Shown here piece by piece: positions 5,758 to 64,000 of a DNA stretch of 64,000 nucleotides. The stretch is from positions 45,434 through 109,433 of the forward strand of contig JAKITS010000001.1 in the NCBI GenBank assembly GCA_021648085.1. Reading direction: 5' to 3'. The stretch comes from Candidatus Magasanikiibacteriota bacterium. Its GTDB lineage: Bacteria; Patescibacteriota; Patescibacteriia; Magasanikbacterales; UBA922. The first letter of the stretch is position 1. Each line of letters opens with the position of its first letter. A program made the translations under genes and the position numbers. The notes below the pieces were generated by a model. It made no database searches. It saw only the letters and a list, made by a program, of their open reading frames with translations, and was not told where the DNA came from.

Positions 5758-6324
5758 ATGGAAGATATTAGAAAAAGACTTTTAATTATAATAGGATTGG
5801 TTTCATTTACTGTTATTATTGTAGTTGTGATTATATTAGCCGTTACAGGAGGAGAAAACAAAGGCACTCAACAGGTGGAAGATCTGCAACAAGAAAATGT
5901 AGAAGAAATTTTTGAGATAGAAGAAGTGGTCAAACGAGCTCCAACTGTAGAAGATATGCCACCGCAAAATCCAGAAGAGGTGAGTGCAAAACAGACTGCG
6001 CGTCTTTTTGTAGAGAGGTTTCAGACTTATTCAAATCAAAACGATAATAAACATATAGATGATGTGATACATTTGGTCACAGATAGTATGGCTGTGTGGG
6101 TAAGAGCTCAAAAAGTAGACAAAAGTTTGGATTATGAGGGTGTTACAACTCAAATTTTAGCTAGCAATGTATCAAATTTGGAAAGTAGTAGTGTGACCGT
6201 AAATATAGAAGCACGACAGACAGTGGAAAATAGTGAAGGGGAGAATACAGAGCAAAAAAGTGGTAGAATAGAGCTTGTAAAGGTTTCTGGAGAGTGGAAA
6301 GTGAGTGGATTTTTTTGGGATTAA
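5758..6324 (+). CDS. N-terminally membrane-anchored protein with NTF2-like soluble domain; possible VirB8/PrgL-like T4SS component
   Basis: single N-terminal TM helix, ~150-aa extracytoplasmic domain ('ARLFVERFQTYSNQ' NTF2/SnoaL-like), position right after VirB4. Confidence 0.3.
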   Translation: MEDIRKRLLIIIGLVSFTVIIVVVIILAVTGGENKGTQQVEDLQQENVEEIFEIEEVVKRAPTVEDMPPQNPEEVSAKQTARLFVERFQTYSNQNDNKHIDDVIHLVTDSMAVWVRAQKVDKSLDYEGVTTQILASNVSNLESSSVTVNIEARQTVENSEGENTEQKSGRIELVKVSGEWKVSGFFWD

Positions 6325-6457: not shown

Positions 6458-6781
6458 CGCGTCATATTGAGCGAAACGAAGTGGAGTCGAAATATCTCAA
6501 AAAAGTATAACCAGAATTATGAATATTTTATGTTCTTATGATTCTGTTTCGAGATCCATTCGACTTCATTCCGCTTTGCTACATTTCGCTCAGGATGACG
6601 TGAATATTTTACGTCATCCTGAGCGGAACGAAGTGGAGTCGAACGGATCCCTGTGCAGTATAACCAGAATATAAATAATTAAAATAAAACGTTAGTCCGT
6701 CTTTCTTTTTGTTCTTTGTTAATTGATAATTGCTAGTTTTGTGAAACTGTTTCGAGATCCTTCGGCTTCGCTCAAAATAAT
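6458..6781. repeat. cluster of 4 copies (mixed orientation) of dispersed intergenic repeat family, core CACGTCAT(C/A)(C/T)TGAGCG-[variable CGAAG-rich]-GGATCTCG(AAAC)
   Basis: copies at ~6458-6498 (+), 6544-6602 (-), 6612-6661 (+), 6749-6780 (-, partial); same family recurs at 15.7, 60.6, 62.7-63.1 and 63.9 kb. Confidence 0.75.
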
Positions 6782-9568: not shown

Positions 9569-9658
9569 CGGAGAGGGCGGGATTCGAACCCGCGGTCCGG
9601 GAAATACCCGGACAACACATTAGCAGTGTGCCGCTTTCGACCACTCAGCCACCTCTCC
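9569..9658 (-). tRNA. tRNA-Ser (anticodon GCT), long variable arm
   Basis: cloverleaf readable: acceptor GGAGAGG/CCTCTCC, D-arm GCTGAGTGGTCGAAAGC, anticodon loop CTGCTAA, T-arm GGGTTCGAATCCC. Confidence 0.85.
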
Positions 9659-9672
9659 AGTATTTTTTGTTT

Positions 9673-9898
9673 TTTAAATTCTTGTGGAGAGAGTGGGATT
9701 CCTCTCGCTCCGACTCGAGCCTGGATACTGCGCGTACTCGTATCCTTCTCATCCCACACACGACACAAGACTTTGTGTCGCTTCTATCCTGCGGAGAGAG
9801 TGGGATTCCTCTCGCTCCGACTCGAGCCTGGATACTGCGCGTACTCGTATCCTTCTCATCCCACACACGACACAAGACTTTGTGTCGCTTCTATCCTG
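9673..9898 (-). repeat. two tandem 108-bp units, each = 18-nt copy of tRNA-Ser(TGA) 3' end (AATCCCACTCTCTCCGCA) + terminator-like hairpin + conserved ~55-nt element
   Basis: units 9673-9790 and 9790-9898 nearly identical; directly abut the 3' end of tRNA-Ser(TGA). Confidence 0.8.
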
Positions 9899-9985
9899 CG
9901 GAGAGAGTGGGATTCGAACCCACGGAGGGCGCAAACCCTCAACGGTTTTCAAGACCGCCGCCTTCGACCACTCAGCCATCTCTCC
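9899..9985 (-). tRNA. tRNA-Ser (anticodon TGA)
   Basis: acceptor GGAGAGA/TCTCTCC, anticodon loop CTTGAAA, long variable arm, T-arm GGGTTCGAATCCC. Confidence 0.85.
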
Positions 9986-15674: not shown

Positions 15675-15803
15675 CACGTCATATTGAGCGGAGTGAAACG
15701 AAGTCGAAATATCTCGGGAGAGTATCATTAGAATTGTGAATATTTAATGTTCTGGTTATTTTGTCTCGAGATCCTTCGGCTTTGCTCAGGAAGGTGTGTG
15801 TGG
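15675..15803. repeat. inverted pair of the dispersed repeat family (forward copy 15675-15715, reverse copy 15763-15803)
   Basis: cacgtcatattgagcggagtgaaacgaagtcgaaatatctc ... gtctcgagatccttcggctttgctcagg; can form a long hairpin. Confidence 0.75.
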
Positions 15804-27793: not shown

Positions 27794-30700
27794 ATGAGAT
27801 TGTTTAAGTCAAAATTTTTCCTATCAATATTTTTTACACTAGTTGTAGTTTCTTTATTTTTTGTTTCGGATATAACTGCTGTTTTTGCACAGCAGGCAGA
27901 TACTTTTGGTTTGGTGGAGGTCGGTCAAGTTACCGAGCTTGGAACGCAAGATATTCGTGTTACAATTGCAAAAATAATAAGAACACTCTTAGGTTTGTTG
28001 GGTGTTTTGGCTGTGTCTATTGTTTTATACGGAGGTTTTGTATATATGACTGCTGGCGGAAGTGAAGATAAACTTGGGCAGGCAAAGAAAATAATTATAA
28101 ATGGGGTTATTGGTTTGGTGATAGTTATGTCTTCTTTTGCAATTACACAGTTTGTCTTGTCGAGCCTTTCAGATGCAACAGGCTCGGGTAGTGTTGGGCT
28201 GTCTTCAAATAATTGTTCAAATACAGAATATGCTATAAACCATCCAAGTGAATGTTTTTCAAATTCAAATTCAGCTTGCACAAAATTTCCATCTTTTTGT
28301 AATTCAGCAGACTTCTTTTTTGTAAAAAGCATAACACCTTCTACACCAAACGGAGCAACAGGAATGAATAATATTGTTATAAGAGCAGTATTTAGTAAAT
28401 CTTTAGCATCAAATACAAATGTAGATTCTATATTTTCAGTTGAAAAAGATGGTATTTCTCAGCCTTTATCTATAAAACTTTCTCAATCTAGACAGGTGGT
28501 GGAGGCAACATTTAGAGCTACCACACCTTTGTGCGATGGGACTGTTCCACCAAATGAAACTTGTTTAGAGTTGGGTGATTTTACTATAAAAATTAATCCA
28601 GATATAAAAGACACAACAGGTAGAGAATTAACAAAAAATATAAATGGGCAGGAGTACCCTGTTTCAGCAGATTTTTCTGTGGATGTTGAGAACATAGACC
28701 ACACAAGACCAACTGTCACAAGTATGACAATAGATGGTTCAAATGCAGAAAATCAAAATATTACAATTGGAGATGCACATTCACTTAGAGTTGCAATGAT
28801 AGATAATACTGGAATTGGTTTTGTAAATATAAACATAAAAAATATAGACACAGGAAAAGTTATAGTAGAGTCTTTTGAGGGTCCAAATCCACTGGACGGA
28901 TCTTCTGGGGAATTTGTTATAGATTATCCTATTATATTGGGGGCTGATATAAATTCACTAGATAGATTTGATGTTTCTGTCACAATTTACGATATAGATC
29001 ATAATAGTAGTGTAAGTATTTTAAGCTTTATAGCTCTAGCAGAGAGCTGTACTAATGGTGTTCAAGATGGAGATGAAACAGGTGTTGATACTGGTGGTTC
29101 TTGCTCACTTTCTTCTGGTAGTTTTTGTGATGAAGATTGGCAGTGTGCCTCTCAAAAATGTGTAAACAACGAGTGTGTTGCTTGGCCAATGATTACAGAT
29201 ATTGATGCTTGGGATGGTGGATCTGGAAACTGGATTACAATTGCAGGACAGTTTTTTGGAGATAAGGAAGGTCTTGTTGAGTTTGGTACAGATTCCAATG
29301 GGGATGGCGAGATAAACGACTTAGATGTGTGGGTTAAAGCCGGTATTGCTATTTGTAGGAGTTTAACTACATGGAAAAACGATTGGATTGTAGTCCAGGT
29401 CCCAGATGATTCAGTTTTGCCAATAGGTTCAGAAAGTGCAATTCGTATTACTCTTGGAGACGGTACAGGGCTTAGTGATTCTACTGTCGATAGTCATGGT
29501 TCCATATCTGGACCAAACAATGGTTTGTTTACAAAAAACGAAATAAAAAGACCTAGTATTTGTGCCGTTGAATCTGTTTTGGGTTCTAATTCAGCAAAAC
29601 CAGATGCTGGTTTTGCTGTAATAGGAAAAAACTTCACAGACGATAAAACTGGAAATAAATTTGAGTTTGGTGGTGTAGAATTACCAACATTAATATGGGG
29701 AGATTTGGAAATTACAAGTAAAATACCGCTAAATACAAATGCTGGTAAGGTCTCTGTTCAGGTTGAGGTTGGTGGAGAAAGAAGTAATACAGTTCCTTTT
29801 ACTGTTTTGCCAATTGATAAAAATTTAATACCTTCAATTTCACTTGTAAACCCAGAAAATATAACAGTAGGAAGTTTTGTTACGCTTTCTGGAACTGGTT
29901 TTGGTGAAACAACAGGAATTGTTTATATATCTCCAAATTCTGGTGCTACTTGTACAGATATTTTGGCAGAAGGTTGTATTCAGGTGGAAGTTTCTTTACC
30001 AAATTTTTGTGGAGATACTTGGAGCTCTAATCAGGTTATTATAAAAATTCCAGATAACACACAATTTGGTGTGTACTATTTGGTTTTACAAAATGATTTT
30101 GGACTTCGTACAGATGGATCAGCTTTTGTTTCTGTTGTTGAGGGAGACCCTAGTCCTAGCATTTGTAAGATGATTCCACAGGCCGGGCCAGCACCACTGC
30201 CTGTTGGACATCAGGGTTTAGAATTTTTTGGGATTAACTTTTCTACAGACCCAACAGTATATTTTTGGTCTAAAACCGCAACAGAAGACGATCTTAATAC
30301 TTGGTTGAACGCAACAGGGAATGATGTAAATCAAATAGATCCGGATACTCATATTGTGAGTTATATCCCGAGTACGATAGAAGGATATTCAATGAAAACA
30401 GGTCCAATTGCCATCAGCTCTATCGATGGTGTTGTTAGTAATGCTGTAAATTACGAGGTTTCAGATTGTCGTGATGTTGGTGCTCCTGTTGGGTATCAGT
30501 GTTGTTCTGTTGGGCCAGACGCTGGAACAATAAAACCAAATGAATTTATTTGTGCAGGAGAGACAAGAGATGCTGGCTATGCTTGGAGATTTACGAGTGG
30601 TCTCCTGCCAAATATACCTTTTGTGGTCGAACAGTGCCCAGAATCAAGCGGTTCCGGAGTACCATCTCCAAGTCCCTGGATAAATAGAAAGCAGGGAGCA

Positions 30701-33700
30701 AATACTTGTTTAAATGCTTTGCCAACAGTTTTGTTTAGTGTGGGAATGAGTGATAGCTCACTTTCAGGAAATATTAGAGTTATTACTTGTGGAGAAGATA
30801 GTTTGCCACAGTGTGAAGATGAGGATATTTTTATTGATGTGTCTGCAGATTTTTCTGCTGGTCTGCGGTCTGAAGGATTTGTTTTAAACTTAACTAATAG
30901 TAATGGGGATTTAACACCAAACACTTGGTATAGGGTTGAACTTGGAAGTGGTTTGCAATCTCAAGAAATTAGGAGTATTTTGGGTATAGATCAGACAGTA
31001 AATGAAAACCTTTTAAAAACAAAATCTTGTGGAGACGGAACTTCTTATTGTTTTGAATTTAAAACAGGAGAAGGTTTATGTACCTTAACTTCTGCAGGTA
31101 TAATGCCAGGTACTCATACAACAAAAATACTAGGTCCTGTTTTGGACAGAAGATTTTCAAAAGAAAGTGAAACTTCACTGTTCTACCATATATTTGGAAA
31201 AGGAGATCAAGAGTGCACGGTTTTAGATGTTGATGGTTTCGGCTGGGACTGGAAGAGTCAAGATGATAATAAGGCAACTGTTGAGATAAGTGTTGGAGAT
31301 GGTTTTGTAGATACTAGAGCAATTGTAAATGCTATAGAAAATACAGCACCAGGAGATGTGAATATTTTTGCAATTTCAAGTAATTCACCTATCTCTCCTG
31401 TAAGTAGTTTAATTATAGATTTAGCAGATCCAAAAGTAGAATCGTATTGGCCAAACTGTGCAGAATCTTGTGTAAATAGTGGTGTTGGTGTCAAATTCAA
31501 CAGAGATATGAATGTTGCTGAATTTGTTTCAAATTTTAGGATAAGTGAGTGTATAGATGAATTTTGTAGTATCACATCAACCATCCCAATACAGTTTGAA
31601 ACTCTGAAAAAAAATAATTTAAATGTATTTCCTGTTGGAAATCTACAGCCAAACACTTGGTATTTTGTAGAGGTTTTTCCAGGAATTCATGCTATAGAAA
31701 AAGAAAATCCTCTTACTTATGGTAAAACAGTGGAAGCTTTTTCTTGGAAGTTTAGAACAAAAAATGACAGTACACTTTGTGGGATTGAGGATGTTTTGGT
31801 TGCCCCAACAAAATATATATCGCGTTTAATAGGAGATAGAAAAGAATATAAAGCAACTCCAATGAGTTTAGCAAATGAGTGTAGTTCTGCTGGACAAAGA
31901 TTAAATCCTTGGAATTTTGCATGGGGTTGGGAGGTCGTGGATACTCAAATAGCTAGTATCTCCTCTTTTGAAACTTTTGGAAAGTCAAAACCATTTTGCA
32001 CAACCTCTTGTTTGTTGGCAGGAAGTGTTGTGAGTTCAGATACTCAAAATGTAACTGCTTTGTGTGGAAATGGGATATTGGAGAGTGGGGAAGACTGTGA
32101 GTTGGATGACCCAGAAGAAGTATTAGGGGTTAGCTGTAGTTTAAGTTGTAAAAGAGTTGGGTCTGTAGCACCAACTTGTGGAGATGGGAGGATAGAATCG
32201 GCAAAAGGTGAGCAATGTGATACAGACGATGCTCTAACAGCCGAGGCTTGTAATGATAATTGTTTGTGGAAAGGTTCTTCAAAAGTAGAGCCAAAATCAA
32301 CAGCGCTAAATATTTCTTGGTGTGGAAGTGGTTCTGTAACATTTGGCGAAAGTTGTGATATTAAAGATCCGCTAACGCAAGATAGATGTTCAAATAAGTG
32401 TTTGAATTTGGGAACGCCTATCTCAAGTTATTGGTGTGAGCAAAATAAAACAAACGAATTACCAGACACAACTTTGGTAGGGCAGTCTGCAGAGTGTTTA
32501 TCTTCTGTAAGTATTTGTGGAAACGGATTATTGGAAAATGGAGAAGCTTGTGAAATCATTGCTAGTACTACTGTTGCGTTTGTGGGTGTTGGAAATGTTA
32601 CAGTTTCAAATGCTTCAGATGTTTGCTCTACTTCTTGTTTAGTTTCAAATGCTTGTGATGAACCAAACATGCCAACCTCAATAAGCTGTGATCCAAAGAT
32701 AGAGGAAGGTTGCACGCCAGAGTGTCTAAATTCTGGCTCATCTCTCGACTATTCAACACCTAGTCTGTGTAACGATGGAATTGTAGGGTTAGGGGAAGAT
32801 AGTTTATGTGAATTATCATCTACCGTACCTTTTGGTCAAAATCCATTGCAAATTGTAACAGCTATTGGAGATGGTGTTGTAAATCCAGATACAAATTCTC
32901 AAGATACACAAATAAGAGCTAGAGCTACAAAAACAAAAGATATAAATGGAAATCCTGTTGATATATCATCAGAATATGGAGAATCTTTATATTCATTACA
33001 GTGCGGATATACAAAATTTGAAGAGCTAATAAATAATAGATTTAACGACTGCCCTAATGCTATTGATGGTGTTGCTACGAACTCTTGTTGTTATACCAGA
33101 CCTCAAAGAGTAAGTGAGTATCCTGTGGATGGTTCTGGGATTGGAAATTCTAGTGCACCAGTTTGTTTGAATTCTTTTATAGAGGTTCATTTTGATGAAG
33201 AGATAAGCAAGTCTTCTGTAAGTGAAAATATATTATTAGCAAAAGGTTATCCGGGTGGATATGATTGTTCTGTAAGTGGAGAGGATAATGTGACAGAACA
33301 GGTGAGAAATTTACTTACTTTGCAAGAAGTAAAAGATGGAATTTGGACAAGGGTTTGGAAGGTTATAAAAAGATTTTTTACAAAAGCTGTTGGTTTGGAA
33401 GTTTTTGCAAGTATGTTTAGTGATTCAGATGTAGAGGTTTGGTGTGTGGGATCTGCAAATTTTAGAACAGATGTCTTGTATGAGGAAGATGTTGATGGAA
33501 ATATACTTTCCACAGATATTTCTATTTCTTTAACAAAGCTTTTGGATGTAGATACTGTTTATGCTGTAGTTTTGAAAAATGAAATTGAAAATTCTGAAGG
33601 TGTTGGAATATCTAGTCCAGATAGTTTAAGTGGTACTTTGGATGATTCATGGATTTTTAAAACTGGAGACGAGGTTTGTAAGATAGACAGCGTTTTTGTA

Positions 33701-36700
33701 AGACCGAGTGCAAAATTATTTGTAAAACCAAACACAACTAGCACTTTTTTTGCATTAGCTCAGAGTACTTCAAAACAAAGAATTGTGCCAATTGAAAATG
33801 TGTATGATTGGGAATGGCATTGGGCACCATTAAATAATGCAATTTTTGATATTTCTGCTTCAACTAGTTCTATAAATATAATAGCTTCTAAAGATTTAGA
33901 AGGAAGTGTTCTTGCAAGTGCAAATGCTGTAATTACTCACGACGCAGATCAAAACAATAGTCAGTTTGGAGAGTATTTTACCGGAATTACAAAATTGTTT
34001 GCTTTATTTTGTGAGAATCCTTGGCCACAATACGAATATTTTCCTTTTGAAGAAGGTATATCTTTTGGATCTTTGGGAAATATAAGTGGTTTTGAGCGGG
34101 GAGTTTTTGATGGCTCTACAATTCCAAAAGTTAGAATAGGTGGAGTATTTGAGTACTTTAATTTCAGTATGTCTTATTGTGCGGATAGTGGATCTTCTGA
34201 TAATAAAGCAGACGATCTTCCGTTCCTAAAACCTATTGTTCTTGTAAATGAATTTGATGTAGTTTCTGGTAATTTAGTTCAAGTTGGTGATAAAAGTTTG
34301 TCTGAGGATACTTTAAAAAAATTCTTCTTTTTCAATGAAAAAAATGATGATGTAATTGGTGTTCAAATTTTTATGAATCCGCTCAGGCTTACTGCCCGTG
34401 AATGGTATATAGAAAAATTTGGATCAGACATTGGAATGGATCAAATAACAGTTGCAGGTTATGATGCGTTGTCAGATAATAATAGTATTTATATAAACGC
34501 ACTAAATCAAGGTTCAAATGGAGATATTTATAATAATATTTACTTATTCAGTTTAAATGGAAGTGCGCAATCAAACACCCGTGAAGTTTTTGATATGTTG
34601 ATGGACTCACTTAAAATGAATATAAATATAAGTGAGTTTAATAGTTGCTCACAAGATGGGGATTTTAACACACCAAATATACAAGAAACAGTAGAGTGTA
34701 GCACAGACTTCGAATGTTTAGATGTTGCAGATTCTGGAGGGGTTTGCGCAAATGCACAGACAAAATTCAAAAGAGATTGGACGCGTCTAACAGACTTAAG
34801 GAATACTCAAGAAAAATTAGATTTTTATAAATTAGAAAATAATTCTTATCCAAAATTAGCTTCTGGATCTTTTATTCCAAACTACACAGTTTCCAAATGG
34901 TCATCTTGGGGAAACTTAAGTAATCTAATTGGTGGAGCGCCGTTAGATCCAGTAAACAAGTGGTCCGATTGTGGTGATTTGGATCCACAGACTTGTTGGG
35001 CTGCAGATGTTTCTGAATATGTTTGTCCAGAAAAAACTAGTGTGTACGAATATTCTTTTGACAGTATAACTAGTGATTACACGCTTCACATCCCTTTTGA
35101 ATATTTTGATTTATCCTCATCTGTAGTTTCAGGATTTTTGGACACTTCAAAAATTAAAATAGACAGGTGGTGTACACCGGGCGACATATATAACCCATCT
35201 TCTGGTGTGTGTGGAGATGGTGTAGTAAATGTTGGTGAACAGTGCGACCCTCCAAATTCTATAAATTACACAAATCAAGGTGTGGTTGGATCACAACAAT
35301 CTGGTTTTTGTGCAGATAGTTATTTGAACCAATCTATTTCTTGTATAAATTCAGCAGATTGTGGTTTATATTTGAATGTTGATGTTGAGCGATCAAAAAA
35401 GAGTATTTTTTCAGATACTGGTTCTGTTTGTTTCGGTGGAGTAGCAAAAGATTTACCATACGACATTTTAGCACATAAAAATGATGAAAGTAAATTATAT
35501 GGAATTAGTTGCCAAACATCTTCTGATTGTAAGTCTAAGGAAAATTATTTTAAAAATTTAACAGCAGGCGGATCTGGTGTACTTGGATTGTACAATGTTC
35601 AAAATGATAGTTTTGCTGAAGAGTCTTTAATTGGTGAATTTATATATAAAAACTTAGATGGAATAAAATGTCTTTCTTTACGGGATTTAGATATAGAATT
35701 TAGAAATGCTGGAAGTGGGACAAGGGGTACAAAACCTGTGGAGTGTAGTATTTCTACAAGTAATCCAATAATTGGATCTTGTAATAATGTAGGAGAATTG
35801 GCGCCAGCTCAGTGTACAGATAAGTGTACAATTAAATATGGAAGTTGTACTTCTTTTACAGACTGTGGAAACGGAAGGGTCGAAATTGGAGAAAATTGTG
35901 ATGATGGTGTAAAAAATGGAGAGTATGGAAGTTGTAATTTAACTTGTGATGGAGTTAGTGATCAGTATTGTGGAAATGGTCAAAAAGATGGTGCAAATGA
36001 AGTTTGTGATATAAATAATTTGGGTTTATCTGGATATTGTAGCAAAGATAAAAACATAAGCTGTTCTGATGATTTGGATTGTGGTGAGGTTAGAAATTTT
36101 GGTAGTTGTGGATATGAATATGTTTCTAATGTTCTAAAGCCTGTGTGTTCCTCAATAGATAGTAATGGTAATGTCCAACTTTCAAATTATCAGAATGGAA
36201 CGCAAGTGTTTTGTTATGACAACAGTTGTGATAAATTCGATAAAATTTATGGAACTTGTATTGCATCAAGTGATCCAACATACAGTTTTAATAAAGATAA
36301 TACTTGCGCTTGGGATTGTCAGGATTTTGGAGATTATTGCGGAGATGGAATTGTGCAAGGTGATTACGAAGCTTGCGATGATGGAAATTCAATAGACGAT
36401 GACAGTTGTGATAATTTTTGTGAAATTAATCTTTTAGCTACCACAAGTCAAGCAAGCTCTGCACCAAGTTGTGGAGATGGTGTGGTAGAAGAAGATGGTA
36501 CAGAAACTTGTGATTTGGGAGAGGATAATGGAATTAAATGTAGTCCATCTTATGGAGAATCTTGTAGTTACTGTTCACTAGATTGTGAAAATATTTTGAC
36601 AGTGGACCCTGTCGCGTATTGTGGAAATGAGACTGTTGATTTTAAATTTAATGATTTTAGTGATTGTTCAGATACTGGGAATATTTGCTTATCCGAACCT

Positions 36701-37981
36701 GTTTATGAGGCTTGTGATTTAAATAATAATAAAGTAGTCAAAAGAACTTCTTCTGGTCAAATATTAACACTTGAATGTGAAGACCAAGGCGCTTATTCGT
36801 GTAATAGTTGTAATGCACTTTCAGACAATTGTGCCAAATGTGTACTAGATACTTCAGGATTACTATCTGTTCCAAAAATCGCAATCCTAAATCCAATGAT
36901 AGGAAATGTGGAGCCTTTGGACAAAAACAGTGTGGATCGTTGGGGTTTTGAAGAGACTTTAGTTTTGGTGAGGCCAGAACCACCTGCAGGTTTTATTCAA
37001 AATCCTTATTTTGGATTTACAAGGCTTACAATGGAAAGTAGTATATATAAAGATCCAACACAGCAAAACTATATGATGGTTGAAAGTGGAACTGGTACTT
37101 ATGCACCTTATAAAGAACACACAATAGAAGGTAATGATTTATGTAGCGGAGAATATGGCGTTTATTTCAGTAATAAAGCTATATTTAATGCTGTAAATGG
37201 TTCAGAAGAAGGTTTTGAGGATAGTTATACAGATTTAACTCGTGGGGATCTTTATGATTATCCAGTAGACGGAACTGCTGAAATAAACAATGAAATAGTA
37301 TATTCTCCAGCTGTGCCACTAGAAGTATTTAGAGTAGTTGTAAAATGGACAGATAAGGAAGCTCGCTCAAATGTTTCGTTTAGTGGAATTGTTCAAAGTA
37401 ATTTTCTAAATCCAGCAGGAGAGTTGAACGGGGCTACTACATTTACAGACGCTGCTGCAGACAGAAAAATATGTAATCAGATAGGTTTAGTGAGTAATTT
37501 TCCAATAGAAGGTAGAAGTTTACCTAACTTTAATGAGTTTAGCAAATATTGGTGGCCAGAAAATACAGCTTGTGCTTACAATAAAAGAATCTATGTACAC
37601 CCAGAAGGAAGTATGGCTAGAACTTATACACAGTCTTTTACTATAGATACTTATAATGATAATGCAGACTATTCTTTTGTTGTGCAAGCTGTAAGTGGTT
37701 CTTTGGAAGGTTCACCAATAGCATCATTTCAGAATAGTAATTTGGAAGTAGAGGTGTACACTCATCACAGTGGACAGGTTCCTAGGGTTTCGGTTTTTAA
37801 ACCTACTCACACTTTCAAAATTAACCAATCACAAAAAAGCAGTAATAATGTGGCAAGATATTGGAGTGTATTTAATATTAAGAGGGTTTCAACCTCAGAA
37901 GGTTCAAAATATGAAATTCAAGCAATAGGAACAAACGGAAGTATAGAATCAACTTGGGATGAGGTTGTTCCTAATTTTTAA
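27794..37981 (+). CDS. giant (3395 aa) secreted/membrane-anchored cysteine-rich protein: VirB2/TrbC-like N-terminal domain + IPT/Ig-like modules + multiple Myxococcus-type cysteine-rich repeats (CG[DN]G...GE.CD)
   Basis: single uninterrupted ORF; >15 'CG(D/N)G..E.GE.CD(D)' repeats between aa ~1380-2600; start ATG 2 nt after previous stop. Confidence 0.6.
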   Translation: MRLFKSKFFLSIFFTLVVVSLFFVSDITAVFAQQADTFGLVEVGQVTELGTQDIRVTIAKIIRTLLGLLGVLAVSIVLYGGFVYMTAGGSEDKLGQAKKIIINGVIGLVIVMSSFAITQFVLSSLSDATGSGSVGLSSNNCSNTEYAINHPSECFSNSNSACTKFPSFCNSADFFFVKSITPSTPNGATGMNNIVIRAVFSKSLASNTNVDSIFSVEKDGISQPLSIKLSQSRQVVEATFRATTPLCDGTVPPNETCLELGDFTIKINPDIKDTTGRELTKNINGQEYPVSADFSVDVENIDHTRPTVTSMTIDGSNAENQNITIGDAHSLRVAMIDNTGIGFVNINIKNIDTGKVIVESFEGPNPLDGSSGEFVIDYPIILGADINSLDRFDVSVTIYDIDHNSSVSILSFIALAESCTNGVQDGDETGVDTGGSCSLSSGSFCDEDWQCASQKCVNNECVAWPMITDIDAWDGGSGNWITIAGQFFGDKEGLVEFGTDSNGDGEINDLDVWVKAGIAICRSLTTWKNDWIVVQVPDDSVLPIGSESAIRITLGDGTGLSDSTVDSHGSISGPNNGLFTKNEIKRPSICAVESVLGSNSAKPDAGFAVIGKNFTDDKTGNKFEFGGVELPTLIWGDLEITSKIPLNTNAGKVSVQVEVGGERSNTVPFTVLPIDKNLIPSISLVNPENITVGSFVTLSGTGFGETTGIVYISPNSGATCTDILAEGCIQVEVSLPNFCGDTWSSNQVIIKIPDNTQFGVYYLVLQNDFGLRTDGSAFVSVVEGDPSPSICKMIPQAGPAPLPVGHQGLEFFGINFSTDPTVYFWSKTATEDDLNTWLNATGNDVNQIDPDTHIVSYIPSTIEGYSMKTGPIAISSIDGVVSNAVNYEVSDCRDVGAPVGYQCCSVGPDAGTIKPNEFICAGETRDAGYAWRFTSGLLPNIPFVVEQCPESSGSGVPSPSPWINRKQGANTCLNALPTVLFSVGMSDSSLSGNIRVITCGEDSLPQCEDEDIFIDVSADFSAGLRSEGFVLNLTNSNGDLTPNTWYRVELGSGLQSQEIRSILGIDQTVNENLLKTKSCGDGTSYCFEFKTGEGLCTLTSAGIMPGTHTTKILGPVLDRRFSKESETSLFYHIFGKGDQECTVLDVDGFGWDWKSQDDNKATVEISVGDGFVDTRAIVNAIENTAPGDVNIFAISSNSPISPVSSLIIDLADPKVESYWPNCAESCVNSGVGVKFNRDMNVAEFVSNFRISECIDEFCSITSTIPIQFETLKKNNLNVFPVGNLQPNTWYFVEVFPGIHAIEKENPLTYGKTVEAFSWKFRTKNDSTLCGIEDVLVAPTKYISRLIGDRKEYKATPMSLANECSSAGQRLNPWNFAWGWEVVDTQIASISSFETFGKSKPFCTTSCLLAGSVVSSDTQNVTALCGNGILESGEDCELDDPEEVLGVSCSLSCKRVGSVAPTCGDGRIESAKGEQCDTDDALTAEACNDNCLWKGSSKVEPKSTALNISWCGSGSVTFGESCDIKDPLTQDRCSNKCLNLGTPISSYWCEQNKTNELPDTTLVGQSAECLSSVSICGNGLLENGEACEIIASTTVAFVGVGNVTVSNASDVCSTSCLVSNACDEPNMPTSISCDPKIEEGCTPECLNSGSSLDYSTPSLCNDGIVGLGEDSLCELSSTVPFGQNPLQIVTAIGDGVVNPDTNSQDTQIRARATKTKDINGNPVDISSEYGESLYSLQCGYTKFEELINNRFNDCPNAIDGVATNSCCYTRPQRVSEYPVDGSGIGNSSAPVCLNSFIEVHFDEEISKSSVSENILLAKGYPGGYDCSVSGEDNVTEQVRNLLTLQEVKDGIWTRVWKVIKRFFTKAVGLEVFASMFSDSDVEVWCVGSANFRTDVLYEEDVDGNILSTDISISLTKLLDVDTVYAVVLKNEIENSEGVGISSPDSLSGTLDDSWIFKTGDEVCKIDSVFVRPSAKLFVKPNTTSTFFALAQSTSKQRIVPIENVYDWEWHWAPLNNAIFDISASTSSINIIASKDLEGSVLASANAVITHDADQNNSQFGEYFTGITKLFALFCENPWPQYEYFPFEEGISFGSLGNISGFERGVFDGSTIPKVRIGGVFEYFNFSMSYCADSGSSDNKADDLPFLKPIVLVNEFDVVSGNLVQVGDKSLSEDTLKKFFFFNEKNDDVIGVQIFMNPLRLTAREWYIEKFGSDIGMDQITVAGYDALSDNNSIYINALNQGSNGDIYNNIYLFSLNGSAQSNTREVFDMLMDSLKMNINISEFNSCSQDGDFNTPNIQETVECSTDFECLDVADSGGVCANAQTKFKRDWTRLTDLRNTQEKLDFYKLENNSYPKLASGSFIPNYTVSKWSSWGNLSNLIGGAPLDPVNKWSDCGDLDPQTCWAADVSEYVCPEKTSVYEYSFDSITSDYTLHIPFEYFDLSSSVVSGFLDTSKIKIDRWCTPGDIYNPSSGVCGDGVVNVGEQCDPPNSINYTNQGVVGSQQSGFCADSYLNQSISCINSADCGLYLNVDVERSKKSIFSDTGSVCFGGVAKDLPYDILAHKNDESKLYGISCQTSSDCKSKENYFKNLTAGGSGVLGLYNVQNDSFAEESLIGEFIYKNLDGIKCLSLRDLDIEFRNAGSGTRGTKPVECSISTSNPIIGSCNNVGELAPAQCTDKCTIKYGSCTSFTDCGNGRVEIGENCDDGVKNGEYGSCNLTCDGVSDQYCGNGQKDGANEVCDINNLGLSGYCSKDKNISCSDDLDCGEVRNFGSCGYEYVSNVLKPVCSSIDSNGNVQLSNYQNGTQVFCYDNSCDKFDKIYGTCIASSDPTYSFNKDNTCAWDCQDFGDYCGDGIVQGDYEACDDGNSIDDDSCDNFCEINLLATTSQASSAPSCGDGVVEEDGTETCDLGEDNGIKCSPSYGESCSYCSLDCENILTVDPVAYCGNETVDFKFNDFSDCSDTGNICLSEPVYEACDLNNNKVVKRTSSGQILTLECEDQGAYSCNSCNALSDNCAKCVLDTSGLLSVPKIAILNPMIGNVEPLDKNSVDRWGFEETLVLVRPEPPAGFIQNPYFGFTRLTMESSIYKDPTQQNYMMVESGTGTYAPYKEHTIEGNDLCSGEYGVYFSNKAIFNAVNGSEEGFEDSYTDLTRGDLYDYPVDGTAEINNEIVYSPAVPLEVFRVVVKWTDKEARSNVSFSGIVQSNFLNPAGELNGATTFTDAAADRKICNQIGLVSNFPIEGRSLPNFNEFSKYWWPENTACAYNKRIYVHPEGSMARTYTQSFTIDTYNDNADYSFVVQAVSGSLEGSPIASFQNSNLEVEVYTHHSGQVPRVSVFKPTHTFKINQSQKSSNNVARYWSVFNIKRVSTSEGSKYEIQAIGTNGSIESTWDEVVPNF

Positions 37982-51953: not shown

Positions 51954-52559
51954 ATGAATAGAAAAACTATTGTTTTGGGAGGTGTTGTTGCTGGAATTAT
52001 TACAATTTTAGGTGTATCTACTGCGAGTGCTCATTTTGGCGGAAACAACCAATCAAATATTTTTCCAGAAAATCGTGAGGAAATTAAGCAAATAATCGAA
52101 TCAAAAGATTATGACGCTTTTAAAACTCATCTAGAAGAAAATGACAGAACTCAAATGCTAGAAAAAATCACAGAAGAAAAATTCAATAAATTCTTGGAAA
52201 TGAGAGAACTTGCGGAATCTGGTGATAAGGATGGCGCTAGAGAAATTAGAGAAGAGTTGAAATTGAAAAAGTTTAGAAAAAATTTCAATAAAGCAAAAAG
52301 ATTTGGATTGCAACACGAAGAAATGAGACAAATAATCGAATCAAGAGATTATGACGCTTTAAAAACTCATCTAGAAGAAAATGACAGAACTCAAATGCTA
52401 GAAAAAATCACAGAAGAAAAATTTGATAAGTTTCTAGAAATGAAAGAGCTTGCTATTTCTGGAGATAGAGAAGGAGCTAAAAAGATTGCAGATGAATTAG
52501 GTTTGGAAAGAGGAATAAGAAATCTTCACAAATCTATGCATAGACAAGTTCAAAAATAA
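51954..52559 (+). CDS. secreted helical protein with internal ~80-aa tandem duplication
   Basis: signal peptide; DNA 52086-52200 and 52326-52440 almost identical; terminator hairpin at ~52584-52603. Confidence 0.45.
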   Translation: MNRKTIVLGGVVAGIITILGVSTASAHFGGNNQSNIFPENREEIKQIIESKDYDAFKTHLEENDRTQMLEKITEEKFNKFLEMRELAESGDKDGAREIREELKLKKFRKNFNKAKRFGLQHEEMRQIIESRDYDALKTHLEENDRTQMLEKITEEKFDKFLEMKELAISGDREGAKKIADELGLERGIRNLHKSMHRQVQK

Positions 52560-60360: not shown

Positions 60361-60632
60361 AAAATAAATTTAATAAAAATTCTGTGCTAAAATAAGCCAA
60401 AAAATTGGCTTATTTTTTATTTTTAGCTAAAATTAGCTAAATAAACTTGACAAAACTATATTTTTATGGTATTTTTATCTATCGTCTTTAAAACTTATAA
60501 GTTTGTGAAGTAAAAAGTTAAAAGTTCTTTTTTGTCATTTCTGGCTTGACTAGGAATCTAGGAGTCTTTATTAAATGAACAACGAAAGAAAGGTGTGGAT
60601 TTTTGGTCAAACTAAAAATAACAGAAAATATT

Positions 60633-60737
60633 CACGTCATCCTGAGCGAAGCCGAAGGATCTCGAGAAAGTATCACCTTTCCTTCACGTCATCCTGAGCG
60701 GAATGAAGCAGGGCGGAATGAAGTCGAATGGATCTCG
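60633..60737 (+). repeat. two tandem copies of dispersed repeat family (second with expanded variable segment)
   Basis: cacgtcatcctgagcgaagccgaaggatctcg... and cacgtcatcctgagcggaatgaagcagggcggaatgaagtcgaatggatctcg. Confidence 0.8.
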
Positions 60738-60842
60738 TAATAAAATCACAATACTTTAAATATTCATAATTCTGGTAATATAATCTCAAGATATTTCGGT
60801 TATGTTCAATATGACTTGTAATGTTTTATTAAAAATAAGGTG

Positions 60843-60915
60843 AGAATAATTTAGAAAATATAAAAATATTTTTTAAATCATCTTCATCAATTCTGATGAA
60901 GAACTGCTTTGGGTG
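60843..60915 (+). promoter_or_regulatory. conserved upstream module with perfect palindrome tcttcatca-attc-tgatgaaga (60881-60902); paralogous copy at 63090-63160
   Basis: ~70 nt shared with 63090-63160; the palindrome shows a compensatory T:A->C:G change between copies. Confidence 0.55.
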
Positions 60916-60983: not shown

Positions 60984-62504
60984 ATGAGCAAGGACAATGA
61001 CAATAATCACGGTTCGGAAATTTTGGAACTTGAAGTTGGTGGGGCTGACCTCCTTTTCAATGAAGGGGAGGCAGAAGATGTTGTCGACGCTTTGGCGGAG
61101 ACGACACTTGTAAATGCAGTTGTGGAAGAAGATGTTTCTTTCACAGTCATTCCCAGCCGAGACCAAGAAGAGGAGATTCAAAACCTCCTCGGAGCTCTAG
61201 GGAAAACAGGTGAGGAGTCTCCAGAAGACTCACTTCAAGCTTTCTCCAAAAGTGGGGATGACGAGGAGTGGAAACCTGCAGTAGTGGTGGAGGCTGAGAA
61301 GTCTACCACCAAAAAACAGGCAGCTGGAGCTCACCAAAAAGTAGAGGTTTTTTCCTCCAAAAAAATCCCGATAGGAACTCCAATTGGACTTCCTCATGGG
61401 AATACTCCCAGAATCCGAAAGGATTTGGGTGGGGTGCAGGAGATCTTGAGGGAGGATGGAACATCCAAACTCAAGGCTGTTCCTATGGATGGGAATACTT
61501 TAACAGCTCCTGTCACGGAGTTGTCGGAGTCTGCACAAGAGGAAGAGTTTTTCAAAGGTGGTGACACTCCACCAAAAGGCTTCAAAGCTGTTCAAAAAGA
61601 TGGTGAAAATCGTCTTGGAGATACATGGGTCGATGAAGATCCATCGTGGTTCGACCGAAACAGCTCAAGCATTTTGGGGTTTGGGATTATCGCTATTGTG
61701 GCGGTAATTCTTTCACTGGTGTTTTTGACTTTGGACATAGCCAAAGCTCCAAACCTCTCGACAGAGGAGCAGACCGCCGAAAAGTCGATAAGTTCCGAAA
61801 AACTCTTTCCTCCCACTTCAGATTCTTCTTCGGAAGAGGAGAAATGGACAGAGGAGGAAAAGAGAAACTTGGAGTCGGAAAAGGCTTTGTCACTTGCTGA
61901 GGAGAATCGCGAAAAGGCAGAAGATCTAGCAGAAGAGTTAGTTTCTTCCGCTACGAGCGCATCTCCAACTACCTCTCCTATTGGATTGGGAAGTACTACA
62001 GGAGCTCTTGATGTGGTGACAACAACAATCGGTGATGATTCTTCGAAAGAGGAAGTCGTTGTTGAAGTCAAAGAAGAAGTTGACTATTCCGAAGCATATG
62101 AAAATATACAAGGAGAAGTTGGTGGACTCGCCGAAGATGTTGAACTGTTCGCAGTCGATGTTCTCGGTGCGATTTCTGAAACTACTTGGCTTACTGTACG
62201 CACTCAACTTGCTAAAGAGGGTTCCGTCGCCGAAACCGAGGAAACAGATTCAGATGATGATTTGGACATTGAGTTCGAAGTCTCTGATGAACCTTCGGGT
62301 GGTGGATATTTTGATATGTCCACAGACGAAATTCTCGCACTAGACTACACAAATCCTCGCGGTGAGGATGATTGTGTGGCTATTATGAGTAGAGCTGGAT
62401 CGGACGAAGTTGGTGAGTTCGAAGGTATGCTCTGTTGCAGAAATCTCCAGATTCTTTCTGGAAAAGATGTGACAGATTGTCAAATTAGAGTGGAAAACTT
62501 TTAG
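60984..62504 (+). CDS. acidic single-pass membrane protein with novel C-terminal Cys domain (..DYTNP.GEDDC...GMLCCRNLQI...DCQIRV); visibly higher G+C than surroundings
   Basis: 506 aa; central TM 'ILGFGIIAIVAVILSLVFLTL'; C-terminal ~55 aa shared with 63209..63739. Confidence 0.5.
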   Translation: MSKDNDNNHGSEILELEVGGADLLFNEGEAEDVVDALAETTLVNAVVEEDVSFTVIPSRDQEEEIQNLLGALGKTGEESPEDSLQAFSKSGDDEEWKPAVVVEAEKSTTKKQAAGAHQKVEVFSSKKIPIGTPIGLPHGNTPRIRKDLGGVQEILREDGTSKLKAVPMDGNTLTAPVTELSESAQEEEFFKGGDTPPKGFKAVQKDGENRLGDTWVDEDPSWFDRNSSSILGFGIIAIVAVILSLVFLTLDIAKAPNLSTEEQTAEKSISSEKLFPPTSDSSSEEEKWTEEEKRNLESEKALSLAEENREKAEDLAEELVSSATSASPTTSPIGLGSTTGALDVVTTTIGDDSSKEEVVVEVKEEVDYSEAYENIQGEVGGLAEDVELFAVDVLGAISETTWLTVRTQLAKEGSVAETEETDSDDDLDIEFEVSDEPSGGGYFDMSTDEILALDYTNPRGEDDCVAIMSRAGSDEVGEFEGMLCCRNLQILSGKDVTDCQIRVENF

Positions 62505-62518
62505 GAGGTGAGTAAAAT

Positions 62519-62558
62519 CGACCGATTGTGAATATAGAAATATATCCACAATCGGTCG
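62519..62558 (+). terminator. terminator hairpin (12-bp stem cgaccgattgtg / cacaatcggtcg)
   Basis: read in sequence right after stop codon. Confidence 0.6.
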
Positions 62559-62575
62559 TAAACTACATTTTAGAC

Positions 62576-62604
62576 TTGACAAAAGTATAAAAATGTGGTA
62601 TAGT
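62576..62604 (+). promoter_or_regulatory. consensus sigma70 promoter TTGACA-N17-TATAGT reading into the repeat array
   Basis: exact -35 hexamer, 17-bp spacer, near-consensus -10. Confidence 0.6.
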
Positions 62605-62642
62605 TATATATTGATTTTTAAATAGAAAAGTGAAACATTTGC

Positions 62643-63080
62643 GAGATATTTCGACTCCGTTTCACTGCGCTCAATATGACGTAAAATAGTCATGTCATCC
62701 TGAGCGGAACAAAGTAAAGTCGAATGGATCTCGAGACAATATCACTTTTTCACACGTCATCCTGAGCGAAGCCGAAGGATCTCGAAACAGAATCACAGAG
62801 TATAAACATTAAAAATCACACACGTCATCCTGAGCGAAGTCGAAGGATCTCGAAACAGAATCACAGAGTACAAACATTAAAAACCACACACGTCATCCTG
62901 AGCGAAGTCGAAGGATCTCGAAACAGAATCACAGAGTACAAACATTAAAAACCACACACGTCATCCTGAGCGAAGTCGAAGGATCTCGAAACAGAATCAC
63001 AAAGTACAAACATTAAAAACCACACACGTCATCCTGAGCGAAGTCGAAGGATCTCGAAACAGAATCACAGAGTATAAAAG
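62643..63080 (+). repeat. repeat-family array: reverse copy (62643-62681), variant forward copy (62694-62752), then 5 tandem 68-bp units (62753-63080)
   Basis: period 68 bp (not a multiple of 3); units differ by only 1-3 SNPs, i.e. the inter-repeat segments are identical rather than spacer-like. Confidence 0.85.
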
Positions 63081-63127
63081 AAAAAAGTGAGAATTGTTTA
63101 GAAAATATAAAAATATTTTTTAAACAA

Positions 63128-63149
63128 TCTTCACTAATTCTGGTGAAGA
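63128..63149 (+). promoter_or_regulatory. palindrome tcttcacta-attc-tggtgaaga (paralogous operator-like site)
   Basis: see 60881-60902. Confidence 0.5.
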
Positions 63150-63208
63150 AGTTCATTCCATATTATTTCATTCCTTTCCTTTCCTTCTTTTTTTCACGTT
63201 TTTAAAGC

Positions 63209-63739
63209 GTGAAGGAGAAAACAATGTCCGAAGAAAAAAAAGAAAAAAAAGAACAAGAAGAACAAGAAGAACAAGAACAAAAAGAACAAGAAGAACAAGA
63301 AGAACAAGAAGAAGAGAGGGAGGTGGAGACACCTCTCAAGGAGAAAAAGACAATAAATTGGATTTGGGGAGCGCTTGCCATTTGGGCAAGTGTTCTCGTG
63401 ATTTGGGGATTGGCGAGTATTTTCTCCTCGGACGATGAGTTCGTAGAGAAAGAGTCGTCACCGCCGCCACCAGTGGTAGTGGCAACAACTTCAATCCCAA
63501 CTCCAATTTTATTACCTCCAACACCTATTGTGGTGAACGGGGTATGCTCATATCTTCCGGATTATACAAATCCCGGAGATGAGGACTGGTGCGTGAAAGT
63601 CGCACAGGAGGCAAAGAGACTTTGTTCTGGCGAAGATGCAGAATTCTACGGCATGCTTTGCTGTAGGAATTTGCAGATTAAAATCGACGACGATGTCGTC
63701 GATTGTCAGATTCGAGTCTCTAGTGTTTTTTATAGATAA
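63209..63739 (+). CDS. acidic (EEQ-repeat) single-pass membrane protein with the same C-terminal Cys domain (paralog of 60984..62504)
   Basis: 'DYTNPGDEDWC...YGMLCCRNLQIKIDDDVVDCQIRV'; TM 'WIWGALAIWASVLVIWGLASIF'; Pro-rich linker. Confidence 0.5.
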   Translation: MKEKTMSEEKKEKKEQEEQEEQEQKEQEEQEEQEEEREVETPLKEKKTINWIWGALAIWASVLVIWGLASIFSSDDEFVEKESSPPPPVVVATTSIPTPILLPPTPIVVNGVCSYLPDYTNPGDEDWCVKVAQEAKRLCSGEDAEFYGMLCCRNLQIKIDDDVVDCQIRVSSVFYR

Positions 63740-63753
63740 GGAGGAATGAAAAC

Positions 63754-63786
63754 AGCCAGATTTGTGATTTCTCACAAATCTGGCTG
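63754..63786 (+). terminator. terminator hairpin cagccagatttgtga-tttc-tcacaaatctggctg
   Basis: read in sequence after stop. Confidence 0.6.
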
Positions 63787-63803
63787 TAAAATACTTTTTA
63801 CAC

Positions 63804-63832
63804 TTGACAAAAGTTAGAAAGTATGCTATTAT
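63804..63832 (+). promoter_or_regulatory. sigma70 promoter TTGACA-N17-TATTAT reading into next repeat copies
   Basis: same CACTTGACAAAAGT context as 62573-62586. Confidence 0.55.
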
Positions 63833-63892
63833 CTTATATTATTTAAAAAGTGAAAATTATTATTAAAATTTTGAGTTAAAGTGAATTGGTTG

Positions 63893-64000
63893 CGAGATAT
63901 TTCGACTCCGTTTCACTCCGCTCAATATGACGTAAAATAGTTGCATCATCCAAAAAAATAGAAATTATCTTAAAGAAATATTTTGCAACACGTCATCCTG
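63893..64000. repeat. repeat-family copies (reverse copy 63893-63932; forward copy begins 63989, truncated by window end)
   Basis: gagatatttcgactccgtttcactccgctcaatatgacgt ... cacgtcatcctg. Confidence 0.75.

Follow-up and report, generated by a model that had tools for sequence, protein, structure and literature searches.

From the standpoint of structure, the closest described relatives of the element considered here are the CGTC-tagged repetitive extragenic palindromic (REP) sequences, a superfamily described by Di Nocera, De Gregorio and Rocco (BMC Genomics 2013; PMC3733652). These repeats present an unpaired CGTC tag (with the variants TGTC and CCTC), a stem of 8-9 bp whose positions 1 and 2 are A-T and T-A, a loop of 4-5 nt that is variable in a few families, and an unpaired 3-nt tail with the consensus CCA. 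They are extragenic and multi-copy, they occur mostly as dimers with the tags outside ('HH' dimers) and rarely head to tail, and no transposase was found to accompany them (PMC3733652). The element in question is a head-to-tail array of 68-bp units, each holding one CGTC-tagged hairpin, near the end of a 64-kb stretch of contig JAKITS010000001.1 (the window), from a metagenome-assembled genome (MAG) of Candidatus Magasanikbacteria, a member of the Candidate Phyla Radiation (CPR)/Patescibacteria with a genome of ~1 Mb. The array lies within a 984-kb contig, of which the searches covered the window; the window represents 6.5% of the genome.

The second described system is that of the Ssn proteins, single-domain GIY-YIG nucleases (SsnA, cd10448) whose association with hairpins has already been published (Chenal et al., Nat Commun 2025; PMC11893778), the typical gene order being NTS-ssnA-NTS. 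Ssn binds its hairpin (in Neisseria the NTS, CGTCATTCCCGCGMAVGCGGGAATCYRG) only as single-stranded DNA (ssDNA), cuts a few nucleotides 5' of the tag and on that strand only, has no activity on double-stranded DNA or RNA, and modulates natural transformation in N. meningitidis. According to mutagenesis, the critical positions of the NTS are the GTC before the palindrome and the C after it, which give the hairpin an orientation. The wider class has been captured in a search string for the SRM, HGTCWYN(0-2)YYVSBRHN(0-5)WNVSBRGN(0-2)RNCYNB (PMC11893778).

The array of the window is probably an amplified CGTC-tagged, REP-type DNA hairpin of the NTS/SRM class, and not the CsrB-like small RNA (sRNA) that the original prediction had proposed. 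In the alignments of the window repeat, CGTC|AT...AT|C is invariant, matching the positions that are critical for Ssn (PMC11893778), and the repeat fits the SRM form, that is, an inverted-repeat hairpin of 20-50 nt whose sequence co-varies between lineages.

The array and the dispersed copies of its hairpin

The array and the two copies that precede it are laid out as follows.

62641-62681, - strand: reverse copy (D1), CGTC-tagged, with an ATATT/AATAT stem and a 23-nt inner segment, 37 nt past the -10 element of the upstream promoter
62693-62733, + strand: variant copy (D2), TGTC-tagged, forming the right side of a dimer; its 25-nt flank is like that of the array unit
62751-63078, + strand: head-to-tail array of 4.8 x 68 bp, each unit made of the 30-nt core CGTCATCCTGAGCGAAGTCGAAGGATCTCG and a 38-nt flank

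This order of a reverse copy, a variant copy and a tandem array downstream of a promoter is the one that had been read from the sequence at first, and D1 is the left member of a tags-inside dimer with an 11-nt spacer. The array cores start at 62755, 62823, 62891, 62959 and 63027. Tandem Repeats Finder reports a period of 68, 4.8 copies, 97% matches and a score of 621, with a consensus that agrees with the unit originally given. Units 2 and 3 are identical, unit 1 differs by three bases and unit 4 by one, while unit 5 keeps the whole hairpin and diverges past ~56 nt into unique sequence. The segments between hairpins are identical between units and, as already stated in the original prediction, this is not the organisation of a CRISPR array.

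The 30-nt core reads CGTC|AT-CCT-GAGCGAAGTCGA-AGG-AT|CTCG and is followed by the AT-rich flank of 38 nt. Its hairpin consists of the unpaired tag CGTC, a 5-bp stem that always begins A-T, T-A (AT-CCT/AGG-AT), and a constant, G/A-rich inner part (GAGCG...AGUCGA) with tandem G.A mismatches and a 2-bp GC helix, to which some copies add a nested variable stem. On the 3' side, a C directly after the palindrome leads into a short tail, TCG. In the short form there are therefore nine stem positions with seven standard pairs (5 + 2) split by the tandem G.A, and a loop of 3-4 nt.

The repeat had been called genome-wide. Within the 64 kb to which the statement applies this holds, with copies at five intergenic loci (6.4, 15.7, 60.6, 62.6-63.1 and 63.9 kb; 5/5 intergenic), and the 17-nt head of the repeat, allowing up to three mismatches, occurs 14 times against 0.03 expected; a looser detector based on a 4-bp stem gave seven false positives per shuffled window and was left out of the counts. 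All 14 well-preserved copies start with CGTC, except for the TGTC at 62693. Copies other than the array units keep CGTCAT...GAGCG...TCGAA...ATCTCG with ATATT/AATAT as the stem, and the inner segments measure 13, 23 or 33 nt. The arrangements found are three tags-outside dimers, three tags-inside dimers and the one head-to-tail array. The two loci distant from the array are the following.

6460-6780, both strands: locus A, four copies (+ 6460-6499, - 6550-6600, + 6612-6652, - partial ~6749-6780)
15677-15795, both strands: locus B, a tags-outside dimer (+ 15677-15716, - ~15763-15795) between a DHH-family gene and clpP, fold z = -4.2

Locus A is contained in a 507-nt spacer between two + strand genes, and its pair at 6460-6600 folds as a single long hairpin (z = -7.4).

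Such composites bear on the idea that the repeat is a non-autonomous transposon similar to a miniature inverted-repeat transposable element (MITE) or to a REPIN, moved by a RAYT-like or other transposase independently of Ssn, with the array as a by-product of repeated insertion. The tags-outside dimers, with their conserved palindromic spacer of ~50 nt, do form composites of 120-150 bp (6460-6600, 15677-15795 and 60687-60815) that fold as single long hairpins, present the REPIN architecture and have ends like terminal inverted repeats; moreover, the flank of the array unit resembles half of the dimer spacer. However, there is no transposase or Y1-type gene among the window open reading frames (ORFs) tested, just as none was found with the CGTC repeats (PMC3733652), no target-site duplications appear on reading the flanks, and the genes that are bracketed by the hairpin encode GIY-YIG nucleases. 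The identical 68-bp period, flank included, points to amplification in place instead of repeated insertion. A transposon origin of this kind is thus judged improbable.

Stem covariation and association with ssn-type genes

The hairpin is distributed far beyond the window. Its core pattern is found on 19 contigs of a viral collection, ranging from 33 to 69% GC, and at more than 120 loci among the matches listed for a genome collection, which fall in Bacteroidota, Clostridia, Chloroflexota, Planctomycetota, Verrucomicrobiota, Proteobacteria, Actinomycetota and others; the source lineage is not among the matches listed for the genome-collection scan, and the subtype with the ATATT stem had no match in the viral collection. 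Covariation among dispersed copies, put forward in the original prediction as a way to check its proposal, is indeed present in the stem pairing, including the stem that carries the GGA motif discussed below. Of 176 copies, 167 keep both unconstrained stem pairs complementary, in five different combinations, and the share of paired cells (formal counts) is 96.7% and 97.4%, versus 16-50% with a slid partner. At one stem pair, each of the four Watson-Crick types occurs, and a covariation score as high as that of the real alignment was not obtained in any of 500 shuffles. Since the variable pairs lack G.U intermediates, a DNA palindrome is favoured over an RNA helix.

The remainder of the hairpin behaves consistently. 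AT...AT is invariant in 33/33 and 19/19 aligned copies, and the tail TCG follows ATC in 166 of 184. The nested stem switches from GGC/GCC to GCC/GGC, longer inner segments are either nested palindromes with compensatory changes or repeats of the pentamer NAGCG, and the consensus folds are concordant across length classes. Neighbouring copies in other genomes form tags-outside dimers in 38 of 47 cases, and head-to-tail clusters of three to five copies recur in unrelated taxa, including isolate genomes.

In some contigs, truncated 5' halves of the hairpin (TGTCATTCTGAGT plus ~10 nt) are found as head-to-tail mini-arrays with a period of 23-50 nt that end in one complete hairpin. They are located at 2685-2755 and 3326-3396 of a Planktothrix plasmid (L208), at ~4426-4663 of contig L106 and at 6257-6396 of contig L080, and their layout suggests that duplications beginning at the tag or close to it have occurred repeatedly.

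With regard to the genes involved, a search for those bracketed by inverted copies returned mostly housekeeping genes plus one GIY-YIG gene, of 96 aa, in Hymenobacter. All three single-domain GIY-YIG genes present in 1.26 Mb of DNA turned out to be bracketed by hairpins. Single-domain PF01541 genes of 87-96 aa are bracketed by the subfamily of hairpins with GAGCG in the inner part in Hymenobacter, two other Bacteroidota-like MAGs, contigs L190 and L191, and Planktothrix, the loci concerned being L029, L106, L080, L190, L191 and L208. Lineage-specific CGTC hairpins are found at the ssn-type gene of Azospirillum, Sinorhizobium, Rhizobium, Shinella, Aeromonas, Neisseria, Spirosoma and two GC-rich contigs. 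Taken together, 29 of the 79 hairpins are no more than 150 nt from an ssn-type gene, a region that makes up 6.3% of the sequence (p = 2e-15), and half of the ssn-type loci (10/20) are hairpin-flanked, with hairpins on both sides in eight. The association does not hold everywhere, because the gut-Firmicutes subgroup with the order dnaN-recF-ssn-gyrB has no hairpins near the gene; the same is true of three other loci.

Two genomic settings of the ssn-type gene may be mentioned in their own right. In the gut-Firmicutes-like contigs (L170-L189 and L192-L193), the gene is fixed in an origin-region cluster, dnaN-recF-(86 aa)-ssn-gyrB, where its start overlaps the upstream gene and gyrB follows after a gap of ~640 nt; this copy may have become resident and domesticated. 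In plasmid AZO_p3 of Azospirillum lipoferum 4B (L206, 2876-3384), ssn and its flanking hairpins are placed within the suf operon, between sufB and sufC, as if a mobile unit had inserted there.

Cassette leaders and RNA-level readings

At least three cassettes follow one another in tandem, and the array belongs to the second. All are organised in the order terminator hairpin, promoter box, several repeat copies, two-hairpin block, hairpin sequestering the Shine-Dalgarno sequence and membrane-protein gene. Their features are listed below; L140 is a contig of a related species.

60447-60815, + strand: leader of cassette 1, with the promoter box at 60447-60475 followed by repeat copies at 60635-60664 (+), 60687-60737 (+, 33-nt inner segment) and ~60777-60815 (-, degenerate)
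62519-62558, + strand: terminator-like hairpin with an 18-bp stem, ending the upstream 506-aa gene, with equivalents before the box in cassettes 1 and 3 and in L140
62576-62604, + strand: sigma-70-type promoter box of cassette 2, TTGACAAAAGT-N-TGgTATAGT
63088-63147, + strand: conserved two-hairpin leader block (GTGAGAATTGTTTAGAAAATAT-AAAA-ATATTTTTTAAACAATCTTCAC, then CTTCAC..GTGAAG), from cassette alignment and folding
63183-63221, + strand: hairpin sequestering the Shine-Dalgarno sequence GGAG (63214-63217), a 14-bp helix at the 3' end of the fold
63224-63739, + strand: downstream gene L3J07_00505, of 171 aa, with an acidic N-terminus, one transmembrane segment and a Cys-rich C-terminus
63804-64000, + strand: leader of cassette 3, ended by the window edge, with the promoter box at 63804-63832, a copy at 63893-63932 (-), a degenerate copy from ~63944 (+) and a new copy from 63990 (+)

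The promoter TTGACA-N17-TATAGT at 62576-62604 was a central element of the original prediction, and it stands, with 11 of 12 consensus positions and a TG extended -10; so does the second promoter at 63804-63832, likewise followed by repeat copies. The promoter upstream of the array is probably real, as its position after a terminator hairpin is kept in three cassettes of the window and three of the relative. A box of the form TTGACAAAA..TAnnnT has four matches in the window against 0.39 expected, three of which are at cassettes, and the cassette box proper, CTTGACAAAAGT...TG.TA...T, is found at 60447, 62576 and 63804 and is kept in L140 at 2132, 4468 and 5587. There is no + strand terminator between the promoter (62604) and the gene at 63224, and for this reason the array is most simply regarded as part of a leader of ~620 nt and not as a separate RNA gene. 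To judge from the arrangement of these signals, it is probably transcribed within that long leader.

The related species is represented by contigs L140 and L154, which belong to the same species, have 43% GC and are syntenic with the window. Given that a metagenome scan with the cassette promoter box yielded 25 loci with L154 as the sole related cassette, the comparison rests on one relative. Its locus keeps the promoter boxes, the leader block, many hairpin copies in mixed orientation and the paralogous gene cassette, and the tags-inside dimer that directly precedes the leader block has its orthologue there (window 62641-62733, L140 4770-4850). The 68-bp array is absent from this syntenic locus. 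As the relative retains the promoter, the copies and the cassette without the array, the latter is best explained as a recent, lineage-specific amplification, in which, as we infer, the right copy of the dimer was multiplied in the window lineage together with ~38 nt of its flank. The hairpins are concentrated in the promoter-proximal leaders of a family of paralogous, fast-diverging membrane-protein genes, to which both the 171-aa gene and the 506-aa gene at 60984-62504 belong; the Cys-rich C-terminus is common to the cassette membrane proteins. While the neighbouring proteins just upstream are 61% and 82% identical between window and relative, the cassette genes (60984-62504 vs L140 2975-4408, and 63224-63739 vs 5035-5526) reach only 35% and 27%, so that hairpin-adjacent genes diverge faster than their neighbours. 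A homologue search with the 171-aa protein returned only itself.

The same comparison bears on whether a dispersed repeat was misassembled, so that the array, or its copy number, would be spurious. Such an artefact could be suspected in a MAG, with a multi-copy repeat and with two array units (2 and 3) that are identical. Against this, the array is internal to the 984-kb contig and its flanks are collinear with those in the relative; the units at its edges have substitutions of their own and pass gradually into unique flanks; and similar head-to-tail clusters exist in isolate genomes, which makes an artefact very improbable.

As for the proposed sRNA, RNAs of the CsrB/RsmZ type carry multiple GGA motifs in loops or single-stranded stretches, have their own terminator and act on a partner, CsrA or RsmA. 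A trans-acting, protein-titrating RNA with repeated GGA was suggested by the strong promoter directly upstream and the fivefold repetition of the unit, and the array does share with these sponge RNAs a promoter-proximal, internally repetitive non-coding region. However, the GGA of the supposedly exposed CGAAGGAUC is the 3' arm of the conserved, covarying stem AUCCU/AGGAU and is thus paired; neither is it a constant feature of the repeat, being replaced by AAUAU in four window copies with the stem ATATT/AATAT. In folding, one unit alone does not surpass its dinucleotide shuffles (z = -0.01), nor do two units folded together (z = 0.12), strong folding being limited to inverted copy pairs (z = -3.8 to -7.4). 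The repeat has no Rfam match at gathering thresholds nor at E<10, and a weak match to COG2827-RNA (E = 0.15) corresponds to the terminator hairpin at 63752-63787 and not to the repeat. A tblastn search of the window, 6.5% of the genome, found no CsrA homologue (best E = 3.6). With no terminator after the array, the array unconserved in the relative, and the repeat being a dispersed DNA element, the CsrB/RsmZ interpretation was dropped as extremely improbable. Hence, of the original reading, the promoter holds and the sRNA does not, and its fallback, a protein-binding DNA array, comes nearest to the answer among the options then offered: the core belongs to a class of DNA hairpins that Ssn binds (PMC11893778), with the qualification that the bound form is ssDNA. 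That the repeat might prove to be a known selfish or repetitive DNA element, the outcome first named as fatal to the RNA proposal, is essentially what was found. Informal comparisons by eye with the hammerhead core (CUGANGA...GAAA, with its GUC cleavage triplet) and with the k-turn and sarcin-ricin motifs also failed, as the invariant positions do not align.

An RNA element acting in cis is a different matter. The hairpins of the ~620-nt 5' leader would act on their own mRNA, for example as barriers to RNases, as sites that attract them or as pause sites for RNA polymerase, and their copy number would tune the expression of the membrane protein. Consistent with this, the promoter position is kept in six cassettes of two species, no + strand terminator intervenes before the gene, both species retain hairpin copies in these leaders, further conserved structures of RNA-like character are present in the leader (the two-hairpin block and the Shine-Dalgarno-sequestering hairpin), and REPs elsewhere affect mRNA stability (PMC3733652). 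On the other hand, the copies occur in both orientations, and their numbers and orders differ between the species; the array is absent from the relative and its unit folds no better than shuffles; the variable pairs lack G.U intermediates; the same hairpin exists in numerous settings and phyla with no link to this gene family; and the protein known to recognise the hairpin class does not bind RNA. On balance, a cis-acting role is unlikely, and nothing specific speaks for it.

The non-repeat part of these leaders has features of its own. The two-hairpin block has equivalents at 60841-60905 and, in L140, at ~2867-2935, 4886-4960 and 5885-5945, where compensatory changes can be read by eye, and the Shine-Dalgarno-sequestering hairpin has an equivalent in L140 at ~5000-5034; in both structures, pairing is apparently kept in this way from one cassette to another and in the two species. 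The CUUCAC segment of the block may pair either upstream (GUGAGAAU...AUCUUCAC) or downstream (CUUCAC...GUGAAG). Leaders of the Cys-rich paralogue family thus look like a cis-regulatory leader with alternative structures, unrelated to the repeat.

Further observations concern the relative and the rest of the window. L140 carries Neisseria-NTS-like hairpins (TGTCATTCCCGGCTCGATCGGGAATCCAG) at 2618-2646 and 5771-5799, beside the GAGCG type, and a third hairpin type (GTCATTTCGAATTTGAGGATACAAATGAGAAATCTCGTC) on the reverse strand at ~2420-2462, so that several hairpin subfamilies coexist in one small genome. In the window, 27794-37981 is one ORF of 3395 aa; giant surface proteins of such size are typical of CPR genomes. 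A perfect 107-bp tandem duplication (9686-9915; 2.1 copies, 100% identity) spans the interval between two - strand tRNA genes (9569-9658 and 9899-9985) and overlaps both. A 26-bp x 2 tandem repeat (CTAGAAGAAAATCACAGAACAAAAATG) appears twice, at 52131-52182 and 52371-52422, 240 bp apart, both pairs being inside or adjoining the ORF at 51954-52559.

The DNA-hairpin reading among known systems

Under the preferred reading of the array as amplified DNA hairpins, one pre-existing hairpin, the right member of the conserved dimer, would recently have been amplified with its 38 nt of downstream flank, by slipped-strand events or unequal recombination. The array would then probably be a passive passenger of the long 5' leader, whose transcription starts at the conserved promoter, and a biological effect would be likelier at the DNA level than through a trans-acting RNA, as it would offer five same-strand sites for nuclease binding or cleavage, and recombination substrates, beside a variable gene. 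An Ssn of this organism would be expected to bind and cleave the array hairpins only as ssDNA.

Several observations weigh against this assignment. Neither tblastn nor profile searches gave an ssn gene in the 64-kb window or in contigs L140, L154 and L141, ~27 kb from the relative included, and a cognate Ssn nuclease in this organism is assumed. The published SRM string has no match in the window, and the unit core and five other sequences of the subfamily fail it. Compared with the CGTC REPs, the tail is CTC(G) and not CCA; the stem has five Watson-Crick pairs, G.A mismatches and two GC pairs versus 8-9 continuous pairs; many copies have inner segments of 23-33 nt versus loops of 4-5 nt; and the head-to-tail array is an arrangement described as rare for the class. 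Finally, the consensus promoter is conserved between the species, the array is very likely transcribed and an RNA-level role in cis is conceivable, and hairpins persisting in the same leaders of two species could reflect selection and not tolerance alone.

CCA-tailed copies of the hairpin occur in other lineages. The string matches the Neisseria and Azospirillum hairpin types and misses the rhizobial type with a 9-bp stem, CGTCATCCTCGGGCTTGACCCGAGGATCCA, even though the latter brackets ssn genes; the loci concerned for this type and the GAGCG subfamily are L207, L210 and L211 (rhizobia), L029 and L208. The string is therefore narrower than the class, and the published SRM counts, given that both the rhizobial and the GAGCG types that bracket ssn are missed, are likely underestimates.

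The assignment would have several consequences. A false lead is removed, in that a 'new repetitive sRNA' becomes a known class of DNA repeat, and the CGTC-REP/Ssn-motif class is extended to a CPR genome of ~1 Mb, for which leaders of 500-900 nt filled with hairpins represent a conspicuous investment. A widespread ssn-bracketing subfamily, with a constant G/A-rich loop and an optional nested stem, has been overlooked by the published string and by censuses based on it. Because the hairpin yields spurious ORFs and 'novel ncRNA' calls in many phyla, automated pipelines would gain from recognising it. Organisms such as the source are thought to depend on DNA uptake.

A further, speculative proposal, to which only a small probability is attached, is that Ssn-type hairpins in the leaders of surface-protein genes drive cassette duplication, changes in repeat number and gene diversification through ssDNA cleavage or recombination at the hairpins. 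As the array hairpins are on the non-template strand of a strong promoter, transcription may expose those of the + strand. If the proposal were true, the locus would correspond, in Patescibacteria, to the NTS clusters found around variable genes of pathogenic Neisseria, and the array copy number would be a contingency switch on leader length or expression.

According to these features, the window repeat can be placed with respect to three described groups. It shares with the CGTC REPs the CGTC/TGTC tag, the A-T/T-A start of the stem, a short unpaired tail, albeit one that reads CTC(G), the extragenic location between unidirectional genes, the predominance of tags-outside dimers, and clusters in which units are reiterated in tandem together with flanking DNA, and differs also by its presence in phyla beyond the five listed for that superfamily. 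With the REPs tagged by GTAG, REPINs and bacterial interspersed mosaic elements, the likeness lies in extragenic palindromes with an unpaired tetranucleotide tag, spaced inverted dimers, clusters and a small single-copy enzyme gene bracketed by repeats; the tag is CGTC and not GTAG, however, and the enzyme is a GIY-YIG nuclease, unlike the RAYT, an HUH Y1 transposase, transposition not having been demonstrated. The NTS/SRM hairpins differ by a GC-rich stem with a 3-5-nt loop, in place of the constant G/A-rich internal loop and optional nested stem, the window repeat having in addition a CPR/Patescibacteria host and a five-unit 68-bp head-to-tail array, which is not a described arrangement. In common with them, it is an oriented hairpin of 28-40 nt with a 5' CGTC/TGTC tag, an AT-start stem and a C after the palindrome (compare CGTCATTCCCGCG..GCGGGAATC with CGTCATCCTGAGCG..CGAAGGATC), and its GAGCG subfamily brackets ssn-type genes in Bacteroidota, Cyanobacteriota and other lineages. 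The NTS/SRM likeness also extends to hundreds of intergenic copies clustered around particular variable genes, and in the window the repeats cluster beside the region's fastest-diverging genes, as in Neisseria, where the same divergence pattern is reported for genes adjacent to dRS3/NTS and diversification of adjacent genes driven by hairpin clusters has been proposed.

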